Source: a virus
Lineage: Duplodnaviria; Caudoviricetes
Strand: one strand, 5' to 3'
Length of the DNA stretch: 64,000 nucleotides
Virus record (IMG/VR): IMGVR_UViG_3300034073_002120
In this document: positions 14,843 to 53,833 of the stretch, piece by piece
Numbering within the stretch: the stretch's first letter is position 1
Layout of the letters: each line of letters begins with the position of its first letter
Position numbers and translations under genes: made by a program
The notes under the pieces: model-generated
Seen by the model: the letters and a program-made list of their open reading frames with translations, nothing else
Database searches by the model: none
What the model was told of the DNA's origin: nothing

Positions 14843-14877
14843 AATTTTAAGTTTTAAGTGTTTTAATTATTATAAAG

Positions 14878-18126: not shown

Positions 18127-18164
18127 AATGTTTTTATGTTTTAGTATTATCAATTATTACTTAG

Positions 18165-18196
18165 CTAATCTAGGAAATTTAATCCACATTTCCAAA
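18165..18196 (-). promoter_or_regulatory. Bacteroidota-type promoter
   Basis: TTTG-N20-TAGATTAG. Confidence 0.75.
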
Positions 18197-18200
18197 TATT

Positions 18201-18398
18201 TTACCCATTATTTTTTAATAAATTTACATAATGTTTTTCGGCCTTTAAAAAGGTAGTTCTACCAACCAGCCCGTTTGCGTAGGCAACGGAATTGGCCATA
18301 ATACACTCAATAATACCGGTCTTATTCATAACACCACCATAAATGATGTTAATAAAGTGAATGTAATCGTTAAGTTTTTTTGGGAATTTCATATTCAT
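18201..18398 (-). CDS. hypothetical protein (65 aa)
   Basis: ORF with its own promoter and A-rich leader. Confidence 0.65.
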   Translation of the reverse strand: MNMKFPKKLNDYIHFINIIYGGVMNKTGIIECIMANSVAYANGLVGRTTFLKAEKHYVNLLKNNG

Positions 18399-18435
18399 AT
18401 TTTTTAAGTTTTAACTATCTCTTAATCTTATAAAG

Positions 18436-18467
18436 CTAAACTACTAAATAATGCTCACATTTCCAAA
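18436..18467 (-). promoter_or_regulatory. Bacteroidota-type promoter
   Basis: TTTG-N20-TAGTTTAG. Confidence 0.7.
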
Positions 18468-18489
18468 TATTTTATCACTTTTTTTCAAT

Positions 18490-18516
18490 AAAAAAGCCAT
18501 TGATTTTCAATGGCTT
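18490..18516 (-). terminator. intrinsic terminator after the vWA gene
   Basis: AAGCCATTGA-AAA-TCAATGGCTT followed by T run. Confidence 0.7.
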
Positions 18517-20618: not shown

Positions 20619-20653
20619 ATTTTTAGAGTTTATCATTATCAATTATTACATAG

Positions 20654-20685
20654 CTAATATACGAATACTTTTCGATATTACCAAA
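20654..20685 (-). promoter_or_regulatory. Bacteroidota-type promoter
   Basis: TTTG-N20-TATATTAG. Confidence 0.78.
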
Positions 20686-20734
20686 TATATTTGAATATTT
20701 TTTTGAATTATTTTTAAGTATCATCATTACAAAG

Positions 20735-20766
20735 CTAATATAGTAAGATTATTCCATATTTCCAAA
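20735..20766 (-). promoter_or_regulatory. Bacteroidota-type promoter (tandem with 20654-20685)
   Basis: TTTG-N20-TATATTAG. Confidence 0.75.
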
Positions 20767-20777
20767 TAATTACCGAC

Positions 20778-22798: not shown

Positions 22799-23641
22799 TT
22801 ATTTTTTCATAGCATGAATTATAGATTCTGCTATATATTGATGTTGTATTAAAGTTGGATGGCCGTTTTGAGTTGCTGGAAATTCGTTTTCAATTCTACG
22901 ATGTGGAAATGTTAATTCCCAATCTCTCCATCTATAATACCATTCATTATCATATCCCTTTAATGGTATTAGTTTAGATTTAATTTCTGGTATAGTTTCT
23001 ATTAGTTTAGAAGTATAAAAATCCCAAGAATCGATTAGATACACATCAGTAATTTTATTCCATTTATTTATGTAATCATTTACAAATATATTCATACTTT
23101 CTAAAAATAGTGGTATGAATTGATTTATAGTATCATCATTAATATTGGTATTCAAATGAATATTTTTATTTTTAACTAACCAATTTAAATGATATGATTC
23201 TTGTTCAGTTAATTGCTGATTATTTAATAGTTTTCTCAAACAATCTAAATATAACATATATGGTCTTACCCCACCCAATTTACAAAAATCACATTTACAA
23301 AATCTACTAAAATGTAAGTTAAATCTATCAAATGTAGTGAATTGATAAATTATAGTTTTTGGATTTTTATCAGAATGTAAATCAAAAAATGTAGGAGATG
23401 CATCAAATCCACCACCATTATAATTTAAAACTAGTTGTTTAGTATTAAAATACTTAGATACTATACCTGCAAATCGATTGGTTTCTCTAAAACAAATTGT
23501 TTCATCTGTTTGTTTAGTTTCTAATTCTAACCAACCATTTTTAAAATTACGTTCATTTACCCAAAAAGGATTGTTAATATATAATTCTAATCCCTCACCC
23601 CAAGTAAAAGAATCACCACCAAAGAATATATAATCATCCAT
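22799..23641 (-). CDS. SGNH-like protein (paralog 5)
   Basis: GGDSFTWGEG...NGHPTLIQH. Confidence 0.7.
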   Translation of the reverse strand: MDDYIFFGGDSFTWGEGLELYINNPFWVNERNFKNGWLELETKQTDETICFRETNRFAGIVSKYFNTKQLVLNYNGGGFDASPTFFDLHSDKNPKTIIYQFTTFDRFNLHFSRFCKCDFCKLGGVRPYMLYLDCLRKLLNNQQLTEQESYHLNWLVKNKNIHLNTNINDDTINQFIPLFLESMNIFVNDYINKWNKITDVYLIDSWDFYTSKLIETIPEIKSKLIPLKGYDNEWYYRWRDWELTFPHRRIENEFPATQNGHPTLIQHQYIAESIIHAMKK

Positions 23642-23642
23642 A

Positions 23643-24533
23643 TTATATAATACTTTTTTGAATCATTTTTTCTATTATAGATTCTGCTATATATTGATGT
23701 TGTATTAAAGTTGGATGACCATTTTTGGTTGCTGGAAATTGATTTACAATTCGTTTGTACTCAAATGATTTTTCCCACATATTCCAATTTGTATAATAAT
23801 TCCCATCAAAGCCTTTTAGTGGAATTATATTATTTCTAATAGCATCAAATTCAGTTAATACATTAGAAGTGTATTCATCCCAACTATCTAAAAAATATAC
23901 TGGTGTTAAAGATGACCAATTTTTTACATATTTTTGTACGAATAATTTTAAATTTTCCAAATAAATTGGTTTAAACATATCATCTATTATTCTAAATATG
24001 ATGTTTAAATCTATATTCTCAAATGGAATATTGTGATTATCTCTAAGATATTCTAATCCAAATTCTTCTACTTTAGTTAATGGAATATTATTTAATTTTT
24101 TATACAAAAAATCAGTATATAAAATCATAGGCTTTTGCATACCAGTGATTTTACAAAATTCACATTCACAATCCATATCTAAATGTAATAACATTCGATT
24201 TAATGTTGTAAATTGATAAATTATTGCTTTTGGATTATTAGGACTTATTTTTTTTAAAGTTTCCTTTATCAGATAAATAGGTGTTTCGAATTGACCACCA
24301 TTAGTCCAGTGAATTTTTGGAATAGTATTAAAATGAGTTGATACTATACCGGCAAATCTATTTTGTTCTCTGAATTGAATTGTTTCGGAATCTTGTTTGT
24401 TTACCAATTCCATCCAACCATTTGAAAACTCTCTTTCAGATTCCCATTTTGGAGTAGGTATATAAAGTTCTAACCCCTCACCCCAAGTAAAAGAATCACC
24501 ACCAAAAATTATAACCTGTTTATTATCTTCCAT
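23643..24533 (-). CDS. SGNH-like protein (paralog 6, tandem duplicate of paralog 5)
   Basis: GGDSFTWGEG...NGHPTLIQH. Confidence 0.7.
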   Translation of the reverse strand: MEDNKQVIIFGGDSFTWGEGLELYIPTPKWESEREFSNGWMELVNKQDSETIQFREQNRFAGIVSTHFNTIPKIHWTNGGQFETPIYLIKETLKKISPNNPKAIIYQFTTLNRMLLHLDMDCECEFCKITGMQKPMILYTDFLYKKLNNIPLTKVEEFGLEYLRDNHNIPFENIDLNIIFRIIDDMFKPIYLENLKLFVQKYVKNWSSLTPVYFLDSWDEYTSNVLTEFDAIRNNIIPLKGFDGNYYTNWNMWEKSFEYKRIVNQFPATKNGHPTLIQHQYIAESIIEKMIQKSII

Positions 24534-38224: not shown

Positions 38225-38247
38225 TTTATCTCTTAACGTTTATACAG

Positions 38248-38279
38248 CTAATATACGATAAATTATCGGATTTACCAAA
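38248..38279 (-). promoter_or_regulatory. Bacteroidota-type promoter
   Basis: TTTG-N20-TATATTAG. Confidence 0.75.
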
Positions 38280-38283
38280 TTTT

Positions 38284-38598
38284 TTACCCGTTAATTAGAG
38301 GTTTTTTTGCTCGTGTTTTCTTATTAAGTTCTTCGTTTTCTTTGGTAAGATATTCAACCTTAACAGATAGGGCTGCAACCTCTTTTGTAAGGGCTAATAC
38401 CATATTTCTAAGGTCATCCTTTTCCTTTGAAGATGCCTCTAATAAAGCCTCTAATTTAGAAATTCTATCCTTACAATCGTGGCGAATGAAATCTTCATCT
38501 CTTTCTTTATGGTCTGCTCTCTTTTCGTAATATCTCCAAGCACCTGTTCCACCTAATACTGTTACGGCTGTTATTAAAACTGAATAAATGTTTTCCAT
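38284..38598 (-). CDS. N-terminal TM + coiled-coil protein (holin/antiholin-like candidate)
   Basis: LITAVTVLGGTGAW, then heptad repeats. Confidence 0.6.
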   Translation of the reverse strand: MENIYSVLITAVTVLGGTGAWRYYEKRADHKERDEDFIRHDCKDRISKLEALLEASSKEKDDLRNMVLALTKEVAALSVKVEYLTKENEELNKKTRAKKPLING

Positions 38599-41525: not shown

Positions 41526-42176
41526 TTATTTTTTTAATCGTATTTTCCAATACACTCCACCTCTGATATATGGTGTTAAATATCCATTTGTACCATCGGT
41601 TGTTTTGTTATTTACACCAATACCCAAATTGTATATTTTATTAGAGTTAGAATTTACCATCACACCAACTCCTATGAAATTTACATAATCAGCTTGATTG
41701 AATCCACCTTCGAATCCAGCATAAACCTTTCTTCTAAAAGGTTCTGGTATTTCAAGAGTATCTACTTTTGGAGTTATATTAGTTATATATTTTCTACCTA
41801 CTAATTTGTTTTTTGAAATCGTATCAGTTATTGTAATTGAACCTTGTTGTTTATCAAACTTATATGTGTTTGTGAATATGTTCTTAGTATTTAGATATTG
41901 ATTTATAATAAAGTTAGTATCCACCTTTGCTTCGATTGTATCATGTACTGCATATGGTATTGGTTTCTCAACTTCATAAGGAACAGGTACTTCAACGGGA
42001 ACTTCAAGTGGAATAGTATCATGAATTGGTTGTAACTCCTCACCATCAACTATAACTGGTTTTTCAACAATTGTAGTTTTATGTGGCATTACACCAAATG
42101 GGTCAAATGATACTAATGATAATGAAATCACTAATACCAAAATAATAATATTTTTTATTTCTAAATATTTTTTCAT
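41526..42176 (-). CDS. membrane-anchored exported protein
   Basis: N-terminal TM, Pro/Val/Glu linker, beta-rich C-terminus ending GVYWKIRL. Confidence 0.7.
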   Translation of the reverse strand: MKKYLEIKNIIILVLVISLSLVSFDPFGVMPHKTTIVEKPVIVDGEELQPIHDTIPLEVPVEVPVPYEVEKPIPYAVHDTIEAKVDTNFIINQYLNTKNIFTNTYKFDKQQGSITITDTISKNKLVGRKYITNITPKVDTLEIPEPFRRKVYAGFEGGFNQADYVNFIGVGVMVNSNSNKIYNLGIGVNNKTTDGTNGYLTPYIRGGVYWKIRLKK

Positions 42177-42586
42177 TATTTAACCAAAAATAATACGGTC
42201 ATTATTAAAGCAATACCAGAACCGGCTTTATAAATAGCAGTTTTTACTTTTTGAACTTTAAGTTCTTTCAATAGACTATTTGATTTTTCTCTTTCCAAAG
42301 AAAATTGTTGGTCTTTCTTATCTATAATAGTATTTAGGTTAGTGATTTTTTCATTCTTCAAACTATCCTTTTGTTTATATAGGTCAATTTGTAGATTCTT
42401 TTCATCTAACATTTTATACACTTGTTTCAACTCTGCTTTAGCACCATCACCACTAAGAATATCCTTAATGACTAATTTTGCTATCGGTACTTTTAGAGGT
42501 ACTATCGAGTCCGTTTTCATATCTGTTTGTGAAAAACCAGATAAGGTCGTGAGCAGTGTAATCATTAACAGCATTAACTTTTTCAT
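42176..42586 (-). CDS. exported coiled-coil protein with C-terminal TM (spanin-like candidate)
   Basis: Signal peptide, heptads, C-terminal hydrophobic segment. Confidence 0.65.
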   Translation of the reverse strand: MKKLMLLMITLLTTLSGFSQTDMKTDSIVPLKVPIAKLVIKDILSGDGAKAELKQVYKMLDEKNLQIDLYKQKDSLKNEKITNLNTIIDKKDQQFSLEREKSNSLLKELKVQKVKTAIYKAGSGIALIMTVLFLVK

Positions 42587-42854
42587 TTGTTTCGTTTTTT
42601 AGTATAGTTATATTTTTGTTTATTGTAGTTACTCTTTCATCTACTTGATGTATTTCATTATCCACTTTATCAATATGAGTATCAATTACTTTATTTGCAG
42701 TTTCAACTGAATCTATTTCGTTTTGTAAAGAATCAATTTTTCGATTATATGCTTCAACATCGGTACGAATCTTATTGTTAGTAAAAATAATATATCCAAC
42801 CAAAACAATAAGAACCGCTAATATGATGTTTTTAAAATTTAACAAATTTTTCAT
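42465..42854 (-). CDS. N-terminal TM + coiled-coil protein (i-spanin-like candidate)
   Basis: TM, then long heptad repeat; 122-nt overlap with the next gene. Confidence 0.65.
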   Translation of the reverse strand: MKNLLNFKNIILAVLIVLVGYIIFTNNKIRTDVEAYNRKIDSLQNEIDSVETANKVIDTHIDKVDNEIHQVDERVTTINKNITILKNETNEKVNAVNDYTAHDLIWFFTNRYENGLDSTSKSTDSKISH

Positions 42855-42886: not shown

Positions 42887-44431
42887 TTAGAATGAAACTT
42901 TTGAACCAATTTGAAAGTTACTTAACATCGTAAATTCAGGCTCATAACTCATATTTGCTTTATATGCAAAGTTAAATCCAAATCTTTTACTGATTTTATA
43001 ATCAAATGAAGCACCTAACATAGATGATGGAATTCTCGTTACAATCGTACCTCCCGTAACTGAATTATACCCTAAAGGTGAATTCATTATGAATACTTGT
43101 GGTGATATTGATAATTTACGAGAGTATTGGTAAGGTTTCATCCAAAATAAAACTACCGATGTTGAAAACGATGATTGTAGGGTTTGGGTTGCATCTGGCA
43201 TTAATAATGTGATAAGTCCAACGTTTGCCCCATAAGTTCCCAATTTAGGATGTGGTTTAATAAATGTATAACCTACCATACCCATATAAGTTCCTTTAAG
43301 ATATGCAGTAGTTAATGAGTAACTATGTAAAGAATGTAATTTACCATTTTCCAATCTCATTTGTGTCATACCACCTGATACAGCAAATTGGTCTAAGGTA
43401 CTCCATATCAATGCTGATGCCGAATATGATTTATCACCCATTAGAGATGATTTAGAAACCCCCAAAGACAACATTGCAGAGTAATTACCATCAGGTCCTT
43501 CCGTGCCTGCTAAATCGGATGCTAACATCATAGGATTGTTATTTACTGCTTTCTTTTTTTCTTTCTTCTCTTCCTTTTTTTCTTCTTTCTTTTCTTCCTT
43601 TTTGGATTCCTCTTTTTTCTCTTCTTTCTTTTCCTCTGATTTAGATTCTTCTTTCTTTTCTTCTTTTGATTCAGTTTTAGATTCTTCTTTCTTTTCTTCG
43701 GTCTTACTTTCAGATTTTGATTCACTCTTTGTTTCTGATTTTGATTCTGATGAAGATGATGAACTACTTTCACTCTTCGTTTCAGTTTTTGTTTCCGAAG
43801 ATGAAGATGATGAACTACTACCACTACTATTAGATGAACCACTATTAGATGATGTAGATGATGAACTACTACTTGCAGGTGGTGGAGTAGAAGATGTCGA
43901 TGATGTAGATGCAGTTGCACCACTACTTGCAGCAGATGAACTAGCAGAACTTGCAGAAGATGATGCTGCAGATGAAGCGGATGAACTTGCTGCGGTAGAT
44001 GCCGATGAAGATGCTGCGGAACTTGCAGCCGAACTTGCTGCACTACTTGCGGCGGATGATGCTGCGGAACTTGCAGCAGATGATGCTGCTTGAGTTGCTG
44101 CTGCAGTTGCTGCGGTAGATGCTGCTTGGGTTACTGCCTGTTGGACAGTTTGTTGAACTACTATATTAGTAGGACATCCCATAGTTGAATATGCCAAATA
44201 AACGGAATTCAACCACAATTGAACTGCACCACTTTGAACTTCTAATGGAGTAAATACTTTAACTTGGTCATAGAATGATACTACTGCATTACCATTTACC
44301 ATCGTAGTTGTTGCGGTTTTTATTTGACCACTACATTTATCTACAAAAGTTTGTGTATAAGTTTGTCCATTTACATTTTCAGCAAATAAACAAATAACCA
44401 ATATTGTTAAAGTTACTAACCATTTTTTCAT
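42887..44431 (-). CDS. putative outer-membrane beta-barrel protein with low-complexity stalk
   Basis: Signal peptide; Ser/Ala then Glu/Lys repeats; alternating beta strands ending in terminal Phe (GSKVSF). Confidence 0.7.
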   Translation of the reverse strand: MKKWLVTLTILVICLFAENVNGQTYTQTFVDKCSGQIKTATTTMVNGNAVVSFYDQVKVFTPLEVQSGAVQLWLNSVYLAYSTMGCPTNIVVQQTVQQAVTQAASTAATAAATQAASSAASSAASSAASSAASSAASSAASSSASTAASSSASSAASSSASSASSSAASSGATASTSSTSSTPPPASSSSSSTSSNSGSSNSSGSSSSSSSSETKTETKSESSSSSSSESKSETKSESKSESKTEEKKEESKTESKEEKKEESKSEEKKEEKKEESKKEEKKEEKKEEKKEKKKAVNNNPMMLASDLAGTEGPDGNYSAMLSLGVSKSSLMGDKSYSASALIWSTLDQFAVSGGMTQMRLENGKLHSLHSYSLTTAYLKGTYMGMVGYTFIKPHPKLGTYGANVGLITLLMPDATQTLQSSFSTSVVLFWMKPYQYSRKLSISPQVFIMNSPLGYNSVTGGTIVTRIPSSMLGASFDYKISKRFGFNFAYKANMSYEPEFTMLSNFQIGSKVSF

Positions 44432-44433
44432 TA

Positions 44434-44649
44434 TTAGTGTTTACCTCTCTTAACATATGAATGAGATTTAGGGTTTCTCACTTTATGTGTTTGTAAAACT
44501 ATACCATGACCAGGTATCCAAATCGGTGTGGTATATGTGGTTGTTCTATGTCTTTGATAATAGTTATGTTTACTTCCAACATTTACAATTTTTACAGGAA
44601 CACACCCAACTAATAATATTAGAACCAATAATGTTATTATATTTTTCAT
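44434..44649 (-). CDS. small lipoprotein
   Basis: MKNIITLLVLILLVG-C lipobox; basic His-rich tail. Confidence 0.65.
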   Translation of the reverse strand: MKNIITLLVLILLVGCVPVKIVNVGSKHNYYQRHRTTTYTTPIWIPGHGIVLQTHKVRNPKSHSYVKRGKH

Positions 44650-44652
44650 ACC

Positions 44653-45372
44653 TTATCTTTGGTATAAATATATCCTTTCATTCTTATCAATACAAATTGC
44701 ACTCATATTCTCAATCCAATCACCACTATTCAAATATCGTTTACCATTTATCATTACATCTGCCGGTTGATGAATGTGTCCACACATCACCCCATCACAT
44801 CCCTTTAAAGAACCCATAGATAATGCACTGGTTTCGAAATCATTTATGTAATTAGTTGCAACCTTTACTTTATTCTTAATCTTTTGAGATATAGATATGT
44901 AAGGTAATTTTCTCCACTTACGATATGAGTTATATACTCTATTTAACCAAAGTGCGAAATCGTATCCTATCGAACCAATCTTTGACAACCATTTGTATTT
45001 GGTTATAAAAACATCAATAACATCTCCATGAAAGATATAATATTTTTCACCATTATTAAGTTTGAGGATATAATCTTCTCTCATTTCTATATTACCAAAA
45101 TGAGAACCTATAAATTCTTGTATGAATTCATCATGATTTCCTCGTATCCAAATGATTTTAGTTTTAGTAGAAAGTTTTAATATTTTTTGAACTACTTTAC
45201 TATGTTTCTTTTTCCATTTAGAACCTCTATTCAAAGCCCAACCATCGATTATATCCCCATTAAGAATTAATAATTCAGTAGGATGTGTTTCAATAAACTC
45301 TAAAAACTCATCTACTTTACTATCTTTAATACCCAAATGAATATCAGATACTATAATTGCTTCGTATTTCAT
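44653..45372 (-). CDS. metallophosphoesterase, LpxH2/PlcP-like
   Basis: SDIHLG, NGDIIDGW, GNHDE, HGD, CGHIH, NSGDW; start refined. Confidence 0.85.
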   Translation of the reverse strand: MKYEAIIVSDIHLGIKDSKVDEFLEFIETHPTELLILNGDIIDGWALNRGSKWKKKHSKVVQKILKLSTKTKIIWIRGNHDEFIQEFIGSHFGNIEMREDYILKLNNGEKYYIFHGDVIDVFITKYKWLSKIGSIGYDFALWLNRVYNSYRKWRKLPYISISQKIKNKVKVATNYINDFETSALSMGSLKGCDGVMCGHIHQPADVMINGKRYLNSGDWIENMSAICIDKNERIYLYQR

Positions 45373-46064
45373 ATCCAATAGTTGTGATGTTTTTTGAAAA
45401 ATTCGGTATTGTTTCGGTTGATGTAGCATTTTATACTTAGTATGAACATATAGAAGAATCCTTTATTCTTAAATCTTCTTGCAGATGTCCATATTCCTTT
45501 TGTGGAGTGAATAATCATTTTATCAGTTTTTTGAGAAACCCAATAATCTTCTGCGAATAGATGCGTTTCATCATATCCACCGGTCTTCCAATATGATTCA
45601 GTTTTCCATAATTGAAATCCACCAACTGCAAATGGAGTTCCCAACCAATTACTCATTCTTTGTTGAATATCAAATAATCGGAATATCCAATTGAATCCTT
45701 TTTCGGTTTGGAATGGGACAGTTACTAAATCAGTATTGTATGATAAACAATCACCTAATACAAATTTATCTTCTAGCATTATATCTGCATCTAAAAAAAG
45801 AATAAAAGGAGTAGTTACTAATTTACTACCTTTCAATCTTGCTTTTGCAGGAAATCCTCCCTTTATAATTTGTATATCTAATGAATATTTAAAATCTCGT
45901 TTTACATATTCTAAAAAATCTAAACTAATAGTTTCATCTGATGTATCTGCTATAATAATTTTTGTTCCTGCTATACCATTTTGTTTTGCTATAAATGAAA
46001 CACATTCATAAATGTTATTTTTTTCATTTTTACAAGGTATGACAATAGTTATTTCGTCTTTCAT
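45369..46064 (-). CDS. GT2 glycosyltransferase
   Basis: IVIPCKNE, FLDAD, AEDY, SARRF; start refined. Confidence 0.85.
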   Translation of the reverse strand: MKDEITIVIPCKNEKNNIYECVSFIAKQNGIAGTKIIIADTSDETISLDFLEYVKRDFKYSLDIQIIKGGFPAKARLKGSKLVTTPFILFLDADIMLEDKFVLGDCLSYNTDLVTVPFQTEKGFNWIFRLFDIQQRMSNWLGTPFAVGGFQLWKTESYWKTGGYDETHLFAEDYWVSQKTDKMIIHSTKGIWTSARRFKNKGFFYMFILSIKCYINRNNTEFFKKHHNYWI

Positions 46065-46074
46065 ATGAATAAGT

Positions 46075-46103
46075 AAAAAACCCCCATTTAATGATGGGGG
46101 TTT
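46075..46103 (-). terminator. intrinsic terminator
   Basis: CCCCCAT-N6-ATGGGGG followed by T run. Confidence 0.75.
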
Positions 46104-46127
46104 CAATATTAAGAAATTATTAAGATA

Positions 46128-46466
46128 TTATTTTTTGTGTAATAATAATTCACCTAAAACTTCAATTTCACCAACTAATTTTTGAAATTCAATTTCAGAT
46201 AAATTCATATTATATATTTTATCACAAAATTCTTTAGATTTTGAATCTAATAAAGCTTTTGTTTCATCAACATTAAAGTTTCCTTTTGATGCATTTTCGT
46301 AATATGGTAATTTAACTACAAAGTGATAGTGAGTCAATATTGCAGGCCCGCCTTTTTCTTTTGCATCATTACTTATTTTTGTTGCACCTTCTAATCTCTT
46401 CGAAGCAAATTGTTCAAACGTAATGATATCATTATCTTCTTTTAATATATTTTTTAACTTTATCAT
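46128..46466 (-). CDS. hypothetical protein with MIKLKNILKE N-terminus
   Basis: ORF. Confidence 0.7.
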   Translation of the reverse strand: MIKLKNILKEDNDIITFEQFASKRLEGATKISNDAKEKGGPAILTHYHFVVKLPYYENASKGNFNVDETKALLDSKSKEFCDKIYNMNLSEIEFQKLVGEIEVLGELLLHKK

Positions 46467-47182
46467 TTTTCAAATACACCTTTTTTAACCATTCTCATTA
46501 AAATTCTAGAACAAGCAATATCTAATGCTTTCTTAGTAGATGTACCAATTGTTGATTGATTAAATTTAACTTCATCCACAGTTGCATCTGAAAGGAATGA
46601 TAATTCTCTTGTAGTTTTTGCTTCACCTAAACCAGATGCTGCAATGATTTCACCCGTCTCTGCGTTTGTAAATCTTACTTGTAAACCCAAACGTGTTACT
46701 ACCATATTCTTAACACCATCTTTTAAGTTTACCGTCTCATCTTCGGAAACGGAAAAATCATATACTTCGATTTCAACAAAGTAATGAGCTAAACGGATTT
46801 TACCTCTACCATCTAACTTATCTTGTGATATACCTGCTTGAGAAGCCTGAAATTGCTTAACCATTCGGTTTTTAATTTCAGTTTTATCTTCCGTAAACGT
46901 AAATCTATTAAGATTTTCCAAATATTCCATCGTGATGTTAGCCACACCCAAACCCACTTTCTTTTCTTTGAGTTCTGGATATTGCTCATAAACTTCATCA
47001 CCAATACCACATTTGAGGATTTGAATCGGAATTTGTTTTCCCTCATAATCTAAAAATTGACTAATGTCTACTTTTGTTTCAAATGATGCTTTATAATTTT
47101 CTGTTTTTGTTGTTCCCACAGTTTGGGCAATGGCAACATTGCTTAGTAAAACACCAAGCAAGAATACTAATAATTTTTTCAT
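46463..47182 (-). CDS. CsgG/HfaB-like exported protein
   Basis: Signal peptide; GLGVANI..EYL...NRF, LGLQVRFTNAETGEI...GEA and FNQSTIG pattern. Confidence 0.7.
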   Translation of the reverse strand: MKKLLVFLLGVLLSNVAIAQTVGTTKTENYKASFETKVDISQFLDYEGKQIPIQILKCGIGDEVYEQYPELKEKKVGLGVANITMEYLENLNRFTFTEDKTEIKNRMVKQFQASQAGISQDKLDGRGKIRLAHYFVEIEVYDFSVSEDETVNLKDGVKNMVVTRLGLQVRFTNAETGEIIAASGLGEAKTTRELSFLSDATVDEVKFNQSTIGTSTKKALDIACSRILMRMVKKGVFEK

Positions 47183-47216
47183 ATACGTTTTTCATATTTT
47201 GTTCGTATATAAATAT

Positions 47217-47245
47217 AAAAAAAGGGAAACTTTCGTCTCCCTTTT
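47217..47245 (-). terminator. intrinsic terminator
   Basis: AAAGGGAGAC-GAAA-GTTTCCCTTT followed by T run. Confidence 0.8.
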
Positions 47246-47249
47246 CAAA

Positions 47250-47504
47250 TTATCCTAATTCTTCTTCTTTTGGTTCATCTTTTTTATTAAAGATTTTACC
47301 AACTTCAGCGATACCGAATGCTCCTAATGTTATATACATAAATGAATTATAAATAAATTCATTCACTAACAATTCTTTTCCCATATATCCCGTTACCAAA
47401 TCGGTAACTGCGAATGCTGTCATTACTACAAATGATGCAAACCCTACGATTGTTTTCTCATTCAAATCATTTGAATCTTTGAAAATATCAGTAAATTTAG
47501 CCAT
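47250..47504 (-). CDS. two-TM small membrane protein
   Basis: Two hydrophobic segments. Confidence 0.7.
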   Translation of the reverse strand: MAKFTDIFKDSNDLNEKTIVGFASFVVMTAFAVTDLVTGYMGKELLVNEFIYNSFMYITLGAFGIAEVGKIFNKKDEPKEEELG

Positions 47505-47551
47505 AGTCTTTTTTCCTTTTTTTAAATTATTAAACTATGTAACCTTTATTA

Positions 47552-48172
47552 TTATCCTACTTGTTCAGAATCTTCATCTTTAATCTTTCCACATTTCAAA
47601 CATTCTTCTTCACCATCACCATCTAAATCACCCCAAACGTGCTCACATTGTCTATGTGCAAAATATACATCAATTTTACCATCACCATCAAAGTCAATAC
47701 CATCCATAGTTCCATCCCCATCTTCATCAACTTCTATTCCAGTTCTAGGTTGTGTAGTTTGATTTATTTCCGATGTTGATACTGTGGGTATAAATTCTTC
47801 CTCATTTTTAAACTCAGCATTTGGTAATACTAATGGTCTTACATCAGTTGGAACTATTGGATTGTTTGGCATATCGGCTGTATTTGATAATGATGTACCA
47901 TCTTCTTCATCCATCTTTTGAACTAGCATTTTATCCTTATCAGTATCACTAAACCAATAATCAATAATCTTACCATAAGAACCGATGAAAGCTCCTAATA
48001 ACAATAATAAAAGTTCTTTCCATTCTCCTGCTATTTCGTTTTTATTAATAATAGCAGCAAACATACCACCAATTATTAACATAAATCCTCCCAATACTAA
48101 CGCAGTAATGTACCATCTACGTTTCATCATATTACTCAATAGGTCTTTGAAACCACTTGGTTGTTCTGCCAT
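47552..48172 (-). CDS. two-TM protein with DxDGDG Ca-binding-like repeats
   Basis: TM pair; DEDGDG, DFDGDG and DLDGDG repeats; CEH...CLKC. Confidence 0.7.
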   Translation of the reverse strand: MAEQPSGFKDLLSNMMKRRWYITALVLGGFMLIIGGMFAAIINKNEIAGEWKELLLLLLGAFIGSYGKIIDYWFSDTDKDKMLVQKMDEEDGTSLSNTADMPNNPIVPTDVRPLVLPNAEFKNEEEFIPTVSTSEINQTTQPRTGIEVDEDGDGTMDGIDFDGDGKIDVYFAHRQCEHVWGDLDGDGEEECLKCGKIKDEDSEQVG

Positions 48173-48195
48173 ATTATTCTCCTTTATTTTTTATA

Positions 48196-48519
48196 CTACC
48201 ACTTTGGTGCTTCTTCTTTGAACTCATCACCTTCTTTTTTCTTAGGTTTTGGTTGAGGTTGTGCCGGTTGAGTATTTCCACCTACTGTCTTTTCTTTGAT
48301 GATTACTGTTTTACCACCTGCAGATTGTTGTTGAGCTTGTTGATTAGAGTTTGTGATATTGATTACCGGTGCTGCTTGCTGAACCGGTGTTTCTTCTTTA
48401 TCACCACCTGTCAATTGTGTAGTAACCCAAGTACCCAATCCTAATGTGATTGTTGATACGAATCCGATGATTACATTTTTTAATGAACCACCTGTACTTT
48501 GTTCTTGTTCTTCTGCCAT
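48196..48519 (-). CDS. single-TM protein with Q/P/K-rich tail
   Basis: ORF with GGAG upstream. Confidence 0.7.
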   Translation of the reverse strand: MAEEQEQSTGGSLKNVIIGFVSTITLGLGTWVTTQLTGGDKEETPVQQAAPVINITNSNQQAQQQSAGGKTVIIKEKTVGGNTQPAQPQPKPKKKEGDEFKEEAPKW

Positions 48520-48537
48520 TTTGTTTTCTCCGTTTTG

Positions 48538-48909
48538 TTATTGTATTTTGTTAAAATCTGTTATTCCTAATTGTCTACCACTTGCATCGAATAATCCAAT
48601 TCTATATGCAGATGATGGTAATGCAGTTGTATATACTTTAAGTACATTATCACCTGCTATTACATTTACATTTTCTTTTGATACTACTCTATTACCAATA
48701 TCAAATATTTTAATTGTTACTGATTGTGCAGTTTCGGTTTTCACATTCATTGCAACTTCTGATGTTACAAAATGTGATTGTACTTTAATACCTACCGAAT
48801 TGGTAATCTTCAAATCTTCCGATACGGCTTGTGGTGTTGGTAATATATCCTCTTTTGAACATCCTACTAATAAAATAGTAAAGAATACCAATCCAAATAT
48901 TTTTTTCAT
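48538..48909 (-). CDS. lipoprotein resembling a T9SS C-terminal sorting domain
   Basis: LLVG-C lipobox; VTIKIFDIGNRVV...GDNVLKV..TALPSSAYRI...FNK. Confidence 0.65.
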   Translation of the reverse strand: MKKIFGLVFFTILLVGCSKEDILPTPQAVSEDLKITNSVGIKVQSHFVTSEVAMNVKTETAQSVTIKIFDIGNRVVSKENVNVIAGDNVLKVYTTALPSSAYRIGLFDASGRQLGITDFNKIQ

Positions 48910-48918
48910 TTTGTTCTC

Positions 48919-49260
48919 CTAATTGATTATTATTGTTGTTTTACTTATTTCTTTTTTAGTAACATCTTCCAATAACAAATATAAGTATTTAACCGATATT
49001 GATTTAGTGTATATTTTCTTTACATTTTCTCCATTTTGACCAATAAATCGTTCTCTACTAATTACTTGTCCACTTTCTTTATCAATTAAAGTTAAAGTGT
49101 ATGTTCCTGCGGATGGTAAATCAAAATATATTGATTGTCCATTTACTACGCTACTTTCACCCACGTTGAATATTTTTTCAACCGGCATAGTAGGTGTTGG
49201 TAAATCTGGCTTAGTACATCCTACTAACAAAATCAACGATATTAATATTATCTTCTTCAT
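48919..49260 (-). CDS. lipoprotein resembling a T9SS CTD / FlgD-Ig domain
   Basis: LLVG-C lipobox; FDLPSAGTYTLTLID..SGQVI...GEN...Y...KTTIII. Confidence 0.6.
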   Translation of the reverse strand: MKKIILISLILLVGCTKPDLPTPTMPVEKIFNVGESSVVNGQSIYFDLPSAGTYTLTLIDKESGQVISRERFIGQNGENVKKIYTKSISVKYLYLLLEDVTKKEISKTTIIIN

Positions 49261-51560
49261 TAGTTTACCTTTACTTTTAATTGTGTTCCACTCTTATTTA
49301 CTGCATCGGTATTTGAAATTGAAGTCAATCCTAATGTACTACTCAATCCTATTAGTGGTAAGAATGTTATTTTATATTCAGTTGTTTTATCTAATATGGT
49401 TGAACCGTCCGTTATTAATGAACCCACTGTTACATAAGACCCTCTATCAGTTCCAAAATTGGTAGGTGTTCCTTTTGTAATGAATTCTACCTTTTCAAAA
49501 CTTAATGCGGTATTATCATAGTTTAAATTGAATTGAGTACCTACTAACTCTTGTTGTAATGGGTCTACCGAAATCGTTACTATCAATTTACCACCAATAT
49601 TTTCACCCATTAGGTATGCGTTGATTTGATTGGAAATTGATTGAGTTGATAAACTCATAGTTCTATATGAATTGGTTGCAACATTACTTACACTTTGTTG
49701 TGCAGAATGTGAAAGGTTTACATCTCCTAACCAAGTTACATTTACATTATATGTGTTATTCAATACTCCACTATTCAAATTAAATGGATACAAACTTCTA
49801 GTTGAGTTGAATTGCGTATTCCAATTAGATTTAGTAATAGCATCGTATTCAGTTTTACCATATAGTTTCATCAAATAGGTTAATGCCGAATATTGTGTAA
49901 GTGGTTGAACACCTGTTAAATGTTGTAATAGTTTATATGTATCTGATTCATTAAATACACCATTACCATCCACATCCGCGTTCATATATTGAATACCATT
50001 TGTAAATTCCAACCCACTTTGATTTCCTAATATACCCCCATTCGATAATTCTTTAAATGCCAAATAGACATCCGTTACACTCACAATACTATTGTATAAT
50101 GTATTTAGTTCTGTTTGGTTATTTGGAATTATATCAATACCATGTTGTTTGAATTCGGTGGAATTTATAAATGTAAATTCTGCTTTTGTTCCATACCACC
50201 CATTTTGTAATCTTAAATAACTTTGATATGTGGATGATAATATTTTTGATGATATGTTTGGAACTATTCTAAATATTTTCCAACCACCAGCATCTTGAAC
50301 ATAAGTTATATCACCTTCGTATATATCGAATAATTTTATTGAATTTACATCAGCTGGAGATACTCCCGTTCCATCAAATTCTCTTGCATCAATATACAAT
50401 CTATGGCCGCCAAAACTCGTAGAATAAACATCTATAATTGCCCATTCAACTTGTCCACCTTCGGTTAATGCTTTCTTACCATTACCACTTATTTTAGCAG
50501 TATCCAAATCATTTGTAATATCTACTTTACCCAACCCACTTAATACTCGTGTTGTATTAGTAGTTGTACTCCATGTATTATTTACAAATGTATTTGCTTT
50601 TGCTGAAAATTTAGTTTCATCTACATTACCACCAAAATCAATATTGAATCTTGCAGTTAATACTTCTCCGTTTGAGTGAGTTGTAGAGTTTGTATAGAAT
50701 TCAGTAAAAGTAGCATCATCAGGATTACTCCAAGTTCCATATTCGATTACATACGCACAATAAAACCCATTTGGTAAATCGTTCCATTGAGTCCCACCAC
50801 TCCATTTAGTTACGGGATAATCTTCATTACCACTATTGTTTGGCTCACCCCCTGCCCAGTTGTTATATTGTCCAACTATATTTCCAGTATATTGTCCGTT
50901 GGATGTTTTGATTAGAGTTCCCTTTTCAGGTCCTGCATCGATTATCCATCTACCTTCCGTTACTTCATCGGTTAATGCGAACCATATATTACCCTGTGGA
51001 ACATTTAATTGAATAAAATTATCTTCATCGGCAGAAGTGATAGTTACTAAATATCCAGTTTGACCTTTGAATGTTGTTGTTTCCGATGCTGCTCTTGCAC
51101 CTGTGTATGTATTTCCGTTTGATATGGGTTTATAGAAGTGTCCATTTACACCATTATAATAATATCCAGTAGGATTGACTGTTGCTGCTACTGATAATTT
51201 AATATTACCTTTCGTTGCACCAGTATTTATTTTTAACCCTTCCAATGCCATATTAATATTAGACATTGTTCCGGTGAATACTATACGAGTTTTATTACCA
51301 CTAAAATTAAATCCACTTGCGGCGGTTAAACCCGTTAAGGTTGTCATATAAAATGATGTCCCTATTGGATATTCTACCAAACTAATTGATGCTAATATAA
51401 TATCTGTTGATGAAAACCCACTCAATACAAATCCACCTGCATATTGCCCTGATGTGGATGGTAGAAAAGATTTAGAGTCCGGAGCAGATACACTCTGTCC
51501 GAACCCTAAAAATGATATAAGTAAAAATAATGTAACTATTAAATATTTCATATTATTCAA
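49260..51560 (-). CDS. exported multidomain protein: Ig-like + C-type lectin + dockerin-like + cohesin
   Basis: Signal peptide; GYLVTITS...WAGGEPNN...WNDL; ADVDGNGVFNESDTYKLLQHL; VGTQFNLNYD. Confidence 0.75.
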   Translation of the reverse strand: MNNMKYLIVTLFLLISFLGFGQSVSAPDSKSFLPSTSGQYAGGFVLSGFSSTDIILASISLVEYPIGTSFYMTTLTGLTAASGFNFSGNKTRIVFTGTMSNINMALEGLKINTGATKGNIKLSVAATVNPTGYYYNGVNGHFYKPISNGNTYTGARAASETTTFKGQTGYLVTITSADEDNFIQLNVPQGNIWFALTDEVTEGRWIIDAGPEKGTLIKTSNGQYTGNIVGQYNNWAGGEPNNSGNEDYPVTKWSGGTQWNDLPNGFYCAYVIEYGTWSNPDDATFTEFYTNSTTHSNGEVLTARFNIDFGGNVDETKFSAKANTFVNNTWSTTTNTTRVLSGLGKVDITNDLDTAKISGNGKKALTEGGQVEWAIIDVYSTSFGGHRLYIDAREFDGTGVSPADVNSIKLFDIYEGDITYVQDAGGWKIFRIVPNISSKILSSTYQSYLRLQNGWYGTKAEFTFINSTEFKQHGIDIIPNNQTELNTLYNSIVSVTDVYLAFKELSNGGILGNQSGLEFTNGIQYMNADVDGNGVFNESDTYKLLQHLTGVQPLTQYSALTYLMKLYGKTEYDAITKSNWNTQFNSTRSLYPFNLNSGVLNNTYNVNVTWLGDVNLSHSAQQSVSNVATNSYRTMSLSTQSISNQINAYLMGENIGGKLIVTISVDPLQQELVGTQFNLNYDNTALSFEKVEFITKGTPTNFGTDRGSYVTVGSLITDGSTILDKTTEYKITFLPLIGLSSTLGLTSISNTDAVNKSGTQLKVKVN

Positions 51561-53205
51561 CTATTAAATCTATTTTATTACCTTTCGCATCTACTGCATC
51601 TGATAGAATGAAATAGAATAAACCTGCAGTATTTGTTAATGATGTTTTTGGTGTAAATATTAATTTGTATGGAGTTCCAACTTTGATTCTTGCAGTTTTT
51701 AATTGGTCAATAGAACCAAATGTTAATCTACCATCTTTGTGTGTAGAAAAGTTTGTGATGGTAGAACCTGCATCAAATATTATATTATCCAAAGTTAATT
51801 TAGATTCATCATAATTCATAATAACTTGTAAACCCGCTAATTCAGTTTTGGTTAATGTAGTAGTTAAAACAACTTTACCATTTTCTAATGTAGATGTAAT
51901 ACCTAATGTTGCTTTTTCTACTGCCAAAGTTTGGTATGCCATCGGAGCAGTACTCATAGATTTGATTGTATTTACCGATTTATCATTTACTGAATTTGTG
52001 TATTGTCCCGCATTTATCTTAGCTACAATCGCAGATGGGTCTGATGAATGTGACCAGTTCAAATCACCACCCCATGCATATACTGCAAATACTTCTTGAA
52101 TAGGTTGTGTAATTACCACTTTATTCTTTACAACACCATCTAACCAACTTTGATTTAACAAACCACTTGTCCATTTTACTGATGTTGATGTATTTGTTGG
52201 AATTGATGCGTTTGAATCCATATTTTGTCCCATTACATGTGCAAATAATGCATATGAATCACCTTCACCAAATTGGTTTGCATTATTAGTTACTTTACCT
52301 ACTTTCTTTTCTAATGTAGGATATGTAAAAAAGTTTGGAGTTCCACTAATATCAGTTTGAGAATGACCTAAGAACGCCTTATATGCATCCGATACGGTTA
52401 CGATATTATTCATCCAAGCTTTTTGGAATGCGGGTCCAACGAATACACCAACTGAATCACCAACTTTAATTTGTGTTGTGAAAAGTGCTTCACCACTTGC
52501 ATCCAAAGGTAATTGTGCGATAGGCTGTTGTGACCAATCAATCAAACCACTACCATTTGTTTGTAATCTCATCAATTGAACCGAATGGTCAGTAATTGTA
52601 TATCCTTGTGGGAATAGAACTTTTACTTTGAATTGAGATGTATTACCAGTTACACTATTCAACGATGTCCAACCTCCACCATAAATCGTACCAACATTTG
52701 TACCAGTTGTATCAGTACCAGTTGCTAAATCTATTTTGAAAATGTTGTTGTAAAGGTTTTTATCCTTTAAGATATATTTTTGTGTTGCCAATAATCCACT
52801 TATTGAAGCATCTGCTCTTTGTATTGTTAATTGCCCAACATTCCAATCTGCGTTTACTGCATAATTCCACGGTGTCAATCCATATTGAACGTTCAAATCA
52901 TTATCACTCGCACCACCATTAAAAGTAAATTTGTAGTTATTCCAACCGGTGTAGAATGTTTGTGCAGATGCACCTTGATTAAATGCAGTAGACACATAAG
53001 TCAATGCCTTATTATCATACTGGTATCTAAACCAAAGATAACGTGGGTTCTTAATAACCTGTCCTTTTGTTAGATTGTAAGATACAGTAATAGTATCACC
53101 AACTCTTAAATTTGAATTAGGTGATAGTGATTGACTAATAGTCAATTGTCCAAACGATGATAGAGATATTAAGAATATCCCCAAAAACATAATTAGTTTT
53201 TTCAT
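51553..53205 (-). CDS. exported cohesin-domain protein
   Basis: Signal peptide; FRYQYDNKAL (cohesin-like); VTVSDAY; GDLNWSHS; AGLQVIMNYD. Confidence 0.7.
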   Translation of the reverse strand: MKKLIMFLGIFLISLSSFGQLTISQSLSPNSNLRVGDTITVSYNLTKGQVIKNPRYLWFRYQYDNKALTYVSTAFNQGASAQTFYTGWNNYKFTFNGGASDNDLNVQYGLTPWNYAVNADWNVGQLTIQRADASISGLLATQKYILKDKNLYNNIFKIDLATGTDTTGTNVGTIYGGGWTSLNSVTGNTSQFKVKVLFPQGYTITDHSVQLMRLQTNGSGLIDWSQQPIAQLPLDASGEALFTTQIKVGDSVGVFVGPAFQKAWMNNIVTVSDAYKAFLGHSQTDISGTPNFFTYPTLEKKVGKVTNNANQFGEGDSYALFAHVMGQNMDSNASIPTNTSTSVKWTSGLLNQSWLDGVVKNKVVITQPIQEVFAVYAWGGDLNWSHSSDPSAIVAKINAGQYTNSVNDKSVNTIKSMSTAPMAYQTLAVEKATLGITSTLENGKVVLTTTLTKTELAGLQVIMNYDESKLTLDNIIFDAGSTITNFSTHKDGRLTFGSIDQLKTARIKVGTPYKLIFTPKTSLTNTAGLFYFILSDAVDAKGNKIDLIVE

Positions 53206-53705
53206 TTTGTTAAGTCCTTTATAATATTTTCACATACTTTTTTCATCGCATTACTTGTTGATTGTTGATTAAACTTACCATCAGTTCCTACAATTAAAGT
53301 TGAAGTTGATATTTCTTCACTTTCTCCTTTTTGTACGGTCTTTTTAATACGTTTATCACCATCCCACAATTCTGCAGATGCAATAATTTGAGTTGTTGCA
53401 ACACCTTTATGAAACACACTTATATTTGTTCCAACATTTGCTACATCAAAAAACAATAACCTAACTTTGATTTTTAATTTCGAGTCTTTTACTAATGGAT
53501 AGCCTAAATCCATCAAACTTTCTTCTATGATGTTTTTCACACCAAATGCAAGATTTTTGTTTCCTGCTAAATTTCCTAATTTAATATCATTCACAACCTC
53601 ACCTACACTAATTTGTGGTAGTTCAGTTTGTGCTTTTAATGATGTTGTTGTAAGTGCAAAAAATGCCACTAATAAAATTGTAGTGAATTTTAAACCAATT
53701 TTCAT
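53202..53705 (-). CDS. exported CsgG-like-fold protein (short paralog)
   Basis: Signal peptide; LAFGVKNIIEESL; C-terminal KFNQQSTSNAMKK echoes KFNQSTIGTSTKK of 46463-47182. Confidence 0.55.
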   Translation of the reverse strand: MKIGLKFTTILLVAFFALTTTSLKAQTELPQISVGEVVNDIKLGNLAGNKNLAFGVKNIIEESLMDLGYPLVKDSKLKIKVRLLFFDVANVGTNISVFHKGVATTQIIASAELWDGDKRIKKTVQKGESEEISTSTLIVGTDGKFNQQSTSNAMKKVCENIIKDLTK

Positions 53706-53804: not shown

Positions 53805-53833
53805 AAAAAAACCCCACTATTAAGTAAGGTTTT
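53805..53833 (-). terminator. intrinsic terminator
   Basis: AAAACCTTACT-TAAT-AGTGGGGTTTT followed by T run. Confidence 0.65.

Follow-up and report, generated by a model that had tools for sequence, protein, structure and literature searches.

The described systems closest to the locus reported here are the CsgG/HfaB family, the cellulosomes together with non-cellulosomal cohesins such as NagJ, the cargo proteins of the type IX secretion system (T9SS), the type Va autotransporters together with FapF, and T5 Llp, Cor, and lambda Lom and Bor, which are phage lipoproteins or barrels put in the host outer membrane during infection. The last of these are single small proteins, and lytic phages are not, to our knowledge, known to place machines of several proteins in the outer membrane of the host. 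The locus is a module of 14 neighboring genes between positions 53705 and 42887 of a 64,000-nucleotide stretch of caudoviral DNA from a jumbo freshwater phage (IMG/VR record IMGVR_UViG_3300034073_002120), and the whole of this stretch is referred to as the window. The module very probably represents a conserved, phage-encoded set of Sec-exported proteins that act on the envelope of the infected cell. More tentatively, these proteins may display glycan binders on the surface of the infected Bacteroidota cell, rather than on the virion, by following the logic of the host T9SS.

Each of these systems resembles the module in part. The module protein I239 shares with the CsgG/HfaB family its fold, a profile homology, insertions of hairpin length at both hairpin positions, and a Tyr-Pro motif. 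In contrast to the CsgG channel, it has no lipid anchor, hairpins with few aromatic residues and no clean lipid-facing surface, and no CsgE, CsgF, or curlin partners, and it is phage-borne and linked to different neighbors. Cohesins, a dockerin-like segment with a calcium loop, and binding modules on a common tail are found both in the cellulosome-type systems and in the proteins B550 and C766 of the module. Here, however, the dockerin and the cohesin stand in one polypeptide with a single canonical calcium loop, the heads are lectins instead of enzymes, and the genes are those of a phage with a diderm Bacteroidota host. As in T9SS cargo, a C-terminal Por_Secre_tail domain is present in orthologues from Flavobacterium phage immuto, from marine contigs, and from 14 fetched loci, and the signal peptides follow the Q-rule. 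In this phage, by contrast, the sorting-domain-like fold is a separate and unfused lipoprotein, an arrangement not described for T9SS. The protein N514 resembles the type Va autotransporters and FapF in its C-terminal 12-stranded barrel, which follows a helix and a long linker with a tethered N-terminal domain, whereas it differs from the autotransporters in having no Pfam Autotransporter match, no beta-helix passenger, a low-complexity stalk, and an N-terminal domain with two cysteines. Unlike the single proteins of T5 and lambda, the module is an operon-like set of 8 to 14 genes that includes lectins, cohesins, CsgG-fold proteins, and inner-membrane parts. No literature on such a phage module was found.

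A conserved module of exported and membrane proteins

Nearly all genes of the window, and all 14 of the module, are on the minus strand, and the base composition is AT-rich and uniform along the window (GC content ~0.30). Translations and a hydropathy scan identified 11 of the 14 genes as encoding a signal peptide, a lipobox, or a transmembrane segment, in agreement with the dozen or so neighboring genes of this type proposed in an initial annotation of the sequence. The three remaining products, a 112-amino-acid (aa) protein, a family 2 glycosyltransferase (GT2), and a metallophosphoesterase, are predicted to be cytoplasmic (Table 1). Signals of the signal peptidase I (SPI) type were found in A167, B550, C766, I239, and N514, with a Gln at position +1 in all five. 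A lipobox Cys was found in D113, E123, and M71, and F107, G206, and H84 are transmembrane proteins. A Gln at +1 after SPI cleavage is the Q-rule of Bacteroidota (PMC5837995), and K-(D/E)2 after the lipobox is a signal for the export of surface lipoproteins in Bacteroidota (PMC5080379). The mature N-terminus of E123, CSKED, matches the latter signal. Together, these signals indicate a host within Bacteroidota and proteins destined to leave the cytoplasm. Three genes immediately downstream of the module (42465-42854, 42176-42586, and 41526-42176) also encode membrane or exported proteins.

The best relative in IMG/VR, G001, contains a 239-aa orthologue of I239 with an identity of 99%, in a record of 287,455 bp that is complete by CheckV and includes a tail sheath gene; a Terminase_6C match and the immuto endolysin were looked for in G001 and were not found. 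Two extra lipoproteins with the surface-export signals CTKED and CSKED are also encoded in this relative (L090 4833-6074 and 6650-7234, at ~169-171 kb), one of which is a repeat protein with FG-GAP-like calcium loops. The phage therefore appears to export further surface proteins outside of the module. The export signals and domains of the module are typical of Bacteroidota, as would be the case for host DNA mis-assembled into a phage contig. Against this origin, the same block with the same flanks was observed in the genome of a cultured phage and in numerous viral contigs that are independent of each other and reach 287 kb, the base composition does not change across the window, and the matches in metagenome-assembled genomes (MAGs) represent the same phage module with no chromosomal context. 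The synteny among the viral contigs, immuto, and the marine and MAG contigs thus excludes mis-assembled host DNA, a risk raised in the initial annotation, and leaves it a negligible probability.

The distribution of the module was analyzed in 81 fetched loci, composed of 80 IMG/VR loci and the immuto locus, where the window proteins were searched by BLAST against all open reading frames (ORFs). The constant order A167-[B550]-C766-[D113, E123]-F107-G206-[H84]-I239-N514-Q216 was observed in the 80 IMG/VR contigs, with a footprint of 8-11 kb. I239 is the most conserved gene of the module, with identities of 78-99% across the 80 loci, a conservation that is inflated as these loci were chosen by their similarity to I239. 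N514 was found in 70 of the 81 loci, F107 in 64, A167 in 60, and H84 in 33. Beyond these loci, a protein collection clustered at 90% included more than 6,000 relatives of I239, many of them near-identical and encoded in freshwater contigs of 230-290 kb.

The same set of genes is found in Flavobacterium phage immuto, whose isolates come from a Baltic Sea mesocosm and whose cultured host is Flavobacterium sp. LMO8. Its proteins gp013-gp019 include a lectin, a protein listed as unknown, a cohesin protein with a T9SS tail, an F107-like protein, an I239-like protein (gp017, 55% identical to I239), a barrel protein that shares the N-terminal domain of N514 (gp018), and a small protein similar to A167. 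Marine TARA contigs, where I239 is 38% identical, retain the protein that combines a cohesin with a C-terminal sorting domain (CTD), the membrane part of G206, F107, and I239; the 343-aa gene that follows the CsgG-fold gene in these contigs is not a homologue of the barrel. An exported Endonuclease_NS nuclease occurs beside or inside the module in immuto and in marine contigs (L001 6166-6744 and L082 5782-6402). Five MAG contigs carry the module, three of which come from bins assigned to Sediminibacterium, Flavobacterium, or Bacteroidetes. Of the 50,697 phage records deposited, only those of the immuto isolates contained I239 and the module, and no match to deposited phages was obtained in a nucleotide search or in protein searches with B550 and the barrel. 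The recurrence of the gene order among the IMG/VR contigs, immuto, and the marine contigs bears out the synteny across Bacteroidota phages that had been suggested as a check.

Table 1. Positions of the module genes, their domains, and adjacent features in the window
Feature	Position	Strand	Description	Basis or occurrence
A167	53202..53705	-	Exported 167-aa protein; shortened, distant CsgG-fold relative; first gene of the module	SPI signal, hhalign
B550	51553..53205	-	Exported 550-aa protein; degenerate dockerin-like segment and C-terminal cohesin	Pfam matches of orthologues
C766	49260..51560	-	Exported; C-type lectin, middle domain, dockerin-like loop, C-terminal cohesin
C766 lectin	50772..51062	-	C-type lectin domain, residues ~167-263
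C766 tail	49263..50108	-	Dockerin-like and cohesin tail common to C766 and B550, C766 residues ~485-766
D113	48919..49260	-	Lipoprotein; T9SS-sorting-domain-like beta sandwich only	Invariant lipobox Cys
E123	48538..48909	-	Paralogue of D113; mature N-terminus CSKED
F107	48196..48519	-	Core membrane protein; one hydrophobic segment, Gln/Asn- and Pro/Lys-rich tail, conserved C-terminal Trp
G206	47552..48172	-	Core protein; two membrane helices, acidic DxDGDG tail, conserved Cys/His cluster	Alignment A10
H84	47250..47504	-	Two membrane helices, charged C-terminus, generic holin-like features
I239	46463..47182	-	Exported CsgG-fold protein; most conserved module gene	Profiles, AlphaFold2, Foldseek; SPI signal
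Variable insert	44653..46466	-	112-aa protein, GT2, and metallophosphoesterase	Pfam 5e-11 and 7e-13; 10-11 of 81 loci
112-aa protein	46128..46466	-	Cytoplasmic
GT2	45369..46106	-	Glycosyltransferase	Pfam match
Metallophosphoesterase	44653..45429	-		Pfam match
M71	44434..44649	-	Small, very basic lipoprotein	Closest relative only
N514	42887..44431	-	Exported; two-Cys N-terminal domain, Ala/Ser helix, disordered stalk, helix, 12-stranded barrel
Q216	41526..42176	-	Downstream of the module range; N-terminal anchor, Pro/Val/Glu-rich linker, beta-rich C-terminus
Terminator-like hairpin	53808..53833	-	Closes the upstream gene, just before the module	11-pair stem, T run
Hairpin and motif	47209..47246	-	Terminator-like hairpin (47219-47246), then ATATTTAT (47209-47216), upstream of I239

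Lectin and cohesin proteins and their link to type IX secretion

B550 and the tail of C766, for which the likely start is the ATG at 51551, share a sequence identity of 25% over 299 residues. The Cohesin family (PF00963) was matched by 7 of 10 B550 orthologues and 9 of 20 C766 orthologues. In G001, the 764-aa orthologue of C766 scored 27.3 bits against a cut-off of 24.1, and the B550 orthologue matched at an E-value of 0.003. In alignment A6, the cohesin block of the window proteins lines up column for column with that of the Pfam-positive orthologues, and two motifs of the tail are conserved, namely the ADVN.DG.F.E.D loop and GDVN.SHSS. Other families matched by the C766 orthologues included PA14 (7 of 20), Lectin_C (six), Dockerin_1 (4 of 20), and GLEYA (three), in addition to Por_Secre_tail. 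The dockerin-like part of C766 is composed of one canonical calcium loop (DVDGNGVFNESD), a first half with a helix only, and the GDVN.SHS motif, and the loop is degenerate in B550. The Dockerin_1 matches of the C766 family were weak (0.003-0.004), and its profile matched a solved dockerin at an E-value of 2.3e-5.

The lectin domain of C766 scored 21.6 bits on Lectin_C (PF00059), where the cut-off is 22.6, and represents the sole near-threshold fold call by Pfam among the window proteins. It is 35% identical to immuto gp013, which matches Lectin_C at 3e-15, and the EPN and WND motifs of calcium-dependent C-type lectins can be read in its translation. The EPN motif marks mannose-type binding in C-type lectins. 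Two cohesin proteins, one of them with a C-type lectin and a dockerin-like segment, had been proposed initially, and this proposal is supported by the orthologues, the EPN and WND motifs, and the Cohesin score in G001.

A comparison of the relatives revealed that different heads are carried on the same tail. In several relatives the tails are 54-72% identical to that of C766 while the N-terminal half is unalignable (13-23%), and in other loci the lectin head is kept (54-69%) on a protein with no cohesin. The types of heads observed were the C-type lectin, PA14, and GLEYA. A binder that follows changing glycans would be expected to swap its heads in this way. No template or variable repeat of a diversity-generating retroelement acting on the lectin was found within the window.

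Head swapping on a conserved tail is also typical of receptor-binding proteins, and calcium-dependent domains fold better outside of the cytoplasm; both points would suit lectin and cohesin proteins that serve as adaptors for receptor binding and attach to the progeny virions at lysis or later. Such a role appears very improbable. In the complete relative G001, Cohesin matches are confined to the module, and hence no virion partner is visible. The sole other weak Dockerin_1 match in this genome is a lipoprotein with FG-GAP-like calcium loops and is no recognizable virion protein. Additionally, the T9SS sorting domains fused in relatives point to the cell surface. The membrane-linked virion appendage offered as an option in the initial annotation accordingly finds no support.

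The connection to T9SS was observed in D113 and E123 and in the proteins that take their place. Among the 28 members of the D113/E123 family, weak matches were found to DUF3244 (12 members) and Por_Secre_tail (9 members, best 0.0038), and E123 scored 0.049 on TIGR04183. A CTD profile was built from four true sorting domains, those of immuto gp015, a TARA 646-aa protein, and two IMG/VR orthologues; both gp015 and the marine 646-aa protein consist of a cohesin and a Por_Secre_tail. The single lipoproteins of loci L056, L039, and L047 matched this profile at 4e-6 to 1.5e-5 (L056 at 4e-6), and those of L056 and L039 also matched the D113/E123 family profile at ~5e-6. These bridging lipoproteins and the weak Pfam matches suggest that the lipoproteins, initially described as CTD-like, are probably relatives of T9SS sorting domains, though their direct similarity is weak. 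In this phage, the sorting-domain-like fold follows a lipobox on its own, rather than forming the C-terminus of a Sec-exported cargo protein. A third small ORF (113 aa) with a weak Por_Secre_tail match (E 1e-4) was found on the minus strand of G001 at 101689-101853, far from the module.

Across the loci, the fused and the free forms of the domain appear as alternatives. A fused sorting domain on a cohesin protein of ~630 aa was found in 14 of the fetched loci and the D113/E123 pair in 36, while no locus had both. Among 66 complete loci, 31 encoded two small lipoproteins, 21 encoded one, 10 encoded the fused domain, four encoded neither, and none encoded both. The free lipoproteins, of which one or two are present in 52 of the 66 complete loci, occupy the same place as the fused domain. 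The loci are related to one another and these counts do not represent independent events, while no exception to the pattern was observed. These comparisons show an either-or pattern that links the module to type IX secretion of the host. The true T9SS sorting domains in related loci suggest that export proceeds, at least in part, through the host T9SS, and the secretion apparatus of its own that had been envisioned for the phage is not borne out. No identity with PorP/SprF or T9SS type B components was found by NCBIfam or Pfam.

Taken as a display system, the module would operate through B550 and C766 as effectors, with exchangeable sugar-binding heads on a conserved tail of a dockerin-like segment and a cohesin. 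The head would be a calcium-dependent C-type lectin in this phage and a PA14 or GLEYA domain in relatives. The effectors would be brought to the surface and held there by the logic of the host T9SS, with the sorting domain either fused or free. D113 and E123, as separate sorting-domain-like lipoproteins with a surface-export signal, would probably act as anchors, and the N514 barrel with its long stalk and N-terminal domain may form a second anchor in the outer membrane or a conduit. I239 and A167 in the periplasm and F107 and G206 in the inner membrane may assist in assembly or export. As a result, glycan binders would coat the infected cell. The likeliest purpose of such a coat would be the occupation of surface glycans, by which superinfection would be excluded and progeny kept off cell debris, and an alternative use would be cell-cell adhesion. 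The aggregation, receptor masking, and directed spread envisioned in the initial annotation are putative outcomes.

CsgG-fold proteins, the barrel, and the membrane proteins

A search of 1.8 billion cluster representatives identified 227 relatives of I239, of which 34 diverse, full-length sequences were aligned. The CsgG family (PF03783) was matched by 18 of the 34 homologues, with a best E-value of 1.9e-17, and LpoB was matched by eight. The family profile matched E. coli CsgG in the PDB at an E-value of 4.6e-7 over residues 2-195. The AlphaFold2 (AF2) model of the I239 monomer had a predicted local distance difference test (pLDDT) score of 84, and CsgG accounted for all of the top 25 Foldseek matches in the PDB, with E-values down to 7e-8 and TM-scores of ~0.5. 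Following CsgG, fold matches were found to FlgT, PelC, and LptE, as well as LpoB. By profile and by predicted structure, I239 is a CsgG-fold protein on a divergent branch of the CsgG family. The A167 family matched the I239 family with an hhalign probability of 94% and an E-value of 1.2e-7 over 126 columns, and the helical insert of the I239 family is missing from A167. The presence of two CsgG-like paralogs in the module, as claimed initially, is supported by these results and, for I239, by the structure prediction that had been suggested as a check.

The conclusion that these proteins are pores fared differently. A lipobox was absent from 20 of 20 A167 orthologues and 71 of 80 I239 orthologues, and the nine flagged exceptions appeared to be artefacts of the regular expression; an LxGC motif is present in most of the distant bacterial relatives of I239. 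In an alignment with E. coli CsgG from MG1655, the hairpin segments of I239 are 21 and 28 residues long, compared to 24 and 29 in CsgG, and they contain three aromatic residues, compared to nine. The best alternating faces of the hairpins include charged residues, leaving no uncharged hydrophobic face, and one or both hairpins are missing from some members of the subfamily. An argument that the hairpins of I239 are too charged was weakened by a similar charged fraction in E. coli CsgG. In the constriction loop, only Tyr-Pro is conserved, while the Asn-Phe positions are occupied by Lys and Glu in I239. Considering the sequence features and the model, a pore formed by I239 appears doubtful.

N514, the other candidate for a passage through the outer membrane, was modeled by AF2 (alignment A9) with 12 strands in residues 302-513 at a pLDDT of ~88 and with a preceding helix in residues 277-294. 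VIA-align matched the barrel to NalP (Z 22.9, 234 residues aligned), EstA (20.3), AIDA-I (20.2), KdgM (19.3), and FapF (19.0), and the top Foldseek matches were NanC and FapF at ~2e-6. The stalk is a low-complexity region of ~190 residues, rich in Ser and in Lys/Glu, of which ~140 are disordered in the model, and the small N-terminal domain contains two invariant and distant cysteines. A match to Pfam Autotransporter or Fap families and a beta-helix passenger were not found in N514. The model and the structural alignments thus support the stalked beta-barrel of the initial annotation. In the Ala/Ser part of N514 (43889-44128), DNA repeats of 24 nt encode an SSAA repeat of period 4, which AF2 models as one long helix of low confidence and which varies strongly in length among relatives.

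I239 and the barrel together could suggest a secretion machine built by the phage, in which a curli-type channel of the CsgG fold and a barrel of the FapF/autotransporter type would export unfolded and possibly fibre-forming proteins of the module. In favor of such a machine, I239 matches CsgG best in both structure and profile, the hairpin segments of I239 are similar in length to the membrane hairpins of CsgG, the barrel and its preceding helix match autotransporter translocators and FapF at Z-scores of 19-23, and F107 carries a conserved, beta-prone segment rich in Gln and Asn. Against such a machine stand the SPI signals of I239 and A167 with no lipobox, the hairpins with few aromatics and no hydrophobic face that some members miss entirely, and the constriction loop reduced to Tyr-Pro. 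In addition, no Pfam match to curlin, CsgE, CsgF, or Fap subunits was found in any module or flanking protein. Bacterial domains of the I239 subfamily are also fused to caspase-like peptidases, with the CsgG-like part at the N-terminus, and to Ser/Thr kinases, with the CsgG-like part at the C-terminus (among P0329, P0357, P0364, P0376, and P0378). By analogy, these fusions hint at the CsgG-like domain as a periplasmic sensor or binding module, and a periplasmic module is what they would suit. For distant members of the family, the surrounding bacterial sequence consisted of short contigs and gave no useful information. Overall, a secretion machine of this type appears unlikely.

A periplasmic location would also be shared by an alternative in which the CsgG-fold proteins regulate or inhibit host peptidoglycan synthases, the beta-barrel assembly machinery (BAM), lipopolysaccharide transport, or T9SS, in a manner similar to LpoB, LptE, PelC, and FlgT. 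The fold matches that follow CsgG, the eight family members that match LpoB, and the missing lipid anchors of I239 and A167 are in line with this alternative. I239 is furthermore far more conserved than the surface-facing genes, as would be expected for the binder of a conserved host target, although this conservation was inflated by the selection of loci. The constant linkage of I239 to a barrel, a cohesin protein, and two inner-membrane proteins is left unexplained by a regulator, which is considered quite improbable.

Among the membrane proteins, F107 was analyzed in an alignment (A11) that takes in immuto gp016 as well as an orthologue of marine origin. In its membrane part, G206 shares 68% identity with a marine protein of 104 aa, and the positive-inside rule predicts that its acidic DxDGDG tail faces the cytoplasm. 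The small inner-membrane proteins of the initial annotation are therefore present, while its calcium-motif protein would carry the motif on the cytoplasmic side. One segment of H84 was flagged in the hydropathy scan, and the second helix was read from the sequence. Downstream of the module, the gene after the barrel gene in 23 loci is that of Q216, whose linker is long enough to span the periplasm; scans of Pfam, PHROGs, and NCBIfam found no family match for this protein. The other two downstream genes (42176-42854) overlap by ~120 nt in different frames and were found in the closest relative only. One encodes an N-terminal membrane helix and a coiled coil, while the other encodes a coiled coil between a signal peptide with Gln at +1 and a C-terminal membrane helix. 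Their layout recalls embedded spanin pairs with the lipobox missing.

These proteins could form a cassette for lysis or envelope disruption, composed of G206, H84, F107, I239, N514, A167, and Q216 as holin-like proteins and a substitute for spanins, with the lectin and cohesin genes as passengers. In support of a cassette, H84 is a small protein of two helices with a charged tail and so is the membrane part of G206, F107 and Q216 each combine a membrane anchor with an extended linker in the periplasm, and the motif ATATTTAT precedes I239. On the other side, searches of Pfam, PHROGs, and NCBIfam with the module and flanking proteins revealed no family of endolysins, spanins, or holins, F107 has no coiled coil of the i-spanin type, the immuto endolysin is ~6 kb away behind tRNA genes, and the lectin/cohesin gene is as constant as the membrane genes. 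The probability of a lysis cassette is accordingly regarded as low.

A more elaborate arrangement would combine all of these parts into a trans-envelope apparatus. Inner-membrane proteins, rings of CsgG-fold proteins, and the FapF/autotransporter-like barrel would export lectin-headed subunits, which would polymerize dockerin-into-cohesin as adhesive fibres and be anchored by sorting-domain lipoproteins that connect in trans to the host T9SS. With such fibres, infected cells would hide their own receptors or catch new hosts ahead of lysis. The existence of such an apparatus is improbable.

The display of glycan binders through host T9SS logic is tentatively preferred here, and several points weigh against it. 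The folds, export signals, synteny, head swapping, and either-or pattern of the sorting domain were observed, while the location at the surface, the binding partners, and the biological role are inferred. The window proteins B550 and C766 fall below the Pfam Cohesin threshold, and their assignment depends on orthologues and family profiles. Likewise, I239 itself has no Pfam match, being below the CsgG threshold, and is assigned through its family profiles and homologues and not by its own Pfam score. D113 and E123 are directly only weakly similar to the sorting domain and do not match the CTD profile built from four domains. The display reading does not account for the passage of B550 and C766 across the outer membrane with no fused sorting domain. 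Loci with a fused sorting domain also retain the CsgG-fold, barrel, and inner-membrane genes, whose role is therefore not simply the replacement of T9SS and may have nothing to do with display. The two conserved cysteines argue against an autotransporter-style export of the N-terminal domain of N514, and the holin-like small membrane proteins of the module fit a role in lysis equally well.

Transcription signals, variable inserts, and the meaning of the module

The terminator and late-type motif that were initially placed ahead of the module were observed in part. The hairpin at 53833-53808 is intergenic, and ATATTTAT precedes the start of I239 by 27 nt and does not occur before A167. Further terminator-like hairpins include an intergenic one at 46104-46077 and the one at 47246-47219, which lies after H84; the number of terminator-like sites in the region is not above that expected by chance. 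On the minus strand, ATATTTAT occurs at 13048, 25878, 32322, 36177, 36830, 41514, 44664, 47209, and 62440, often 20-40 nt upstream of gene starts. It may represent a second promoter class of a late type, while its overall count is below chance. In three freshwater metatranscriptomes, 5-7% of the sampled words were present. Shine-Dalgarno-like leaders (AGGA or GGAG), which are unusual for starts of the Bacteroidota type, precede 53705, 48909, 48519, 48172, 47504, and 44431.

Outside of the module, an intergenic element of ~50-100 nt recurs at 29-96, 14841-14938, 18128-18225, 18399-18496, 20617-20772, and 38233-38285, and reads ...TAGCTAATATA...TTTCCAAATATTT on the plus strand. It is absent from the module itself and probably represents a promoter class for the minus-strand genes. 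Two adjacent paralogous genes at 22799-24533 (280 and 296 aa) contain repeats with identities of 75-91%, and a comparison of their sequences indicates a recent tandem duplication.

The GT2/metallophosphoesterase pair, the 112-aa protein, and the lipoprotein M71 (71 aa) are variable inserts of the module and were found in few loci and at differing positions. The GT2 and metallophosphoesterase genes (44653-46106 in the window; L007, L021-L025, L029, L031, and L041) move as one unit, and their sites across the relatives are before A167, between E123 and I239, or in the interval between I239 and the barrel gene. An identity of the metallophosphoesterase as LpxH was rejected, as only generic matches of the YfcE type were obtained.

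While each part of the module belongs to a known fold family, the combination of the parts, their phage origin, and the cis/trans pattern of the sorting domain match no described system. The occurrence of the sorting domain in fused and free forms raises the question of whether such a domain can work in trans. The module is carried by a cultured pair, immuto and Flavobacterium sp. LMO8, and is thus experimentally tractable. Aquatic Bacteroidota are central to the turnover of polysaccharides, and if the display of glycan binders is true, it would represent a new way for phages to alter cell-cell and phage-cell contacts among these bacteria.

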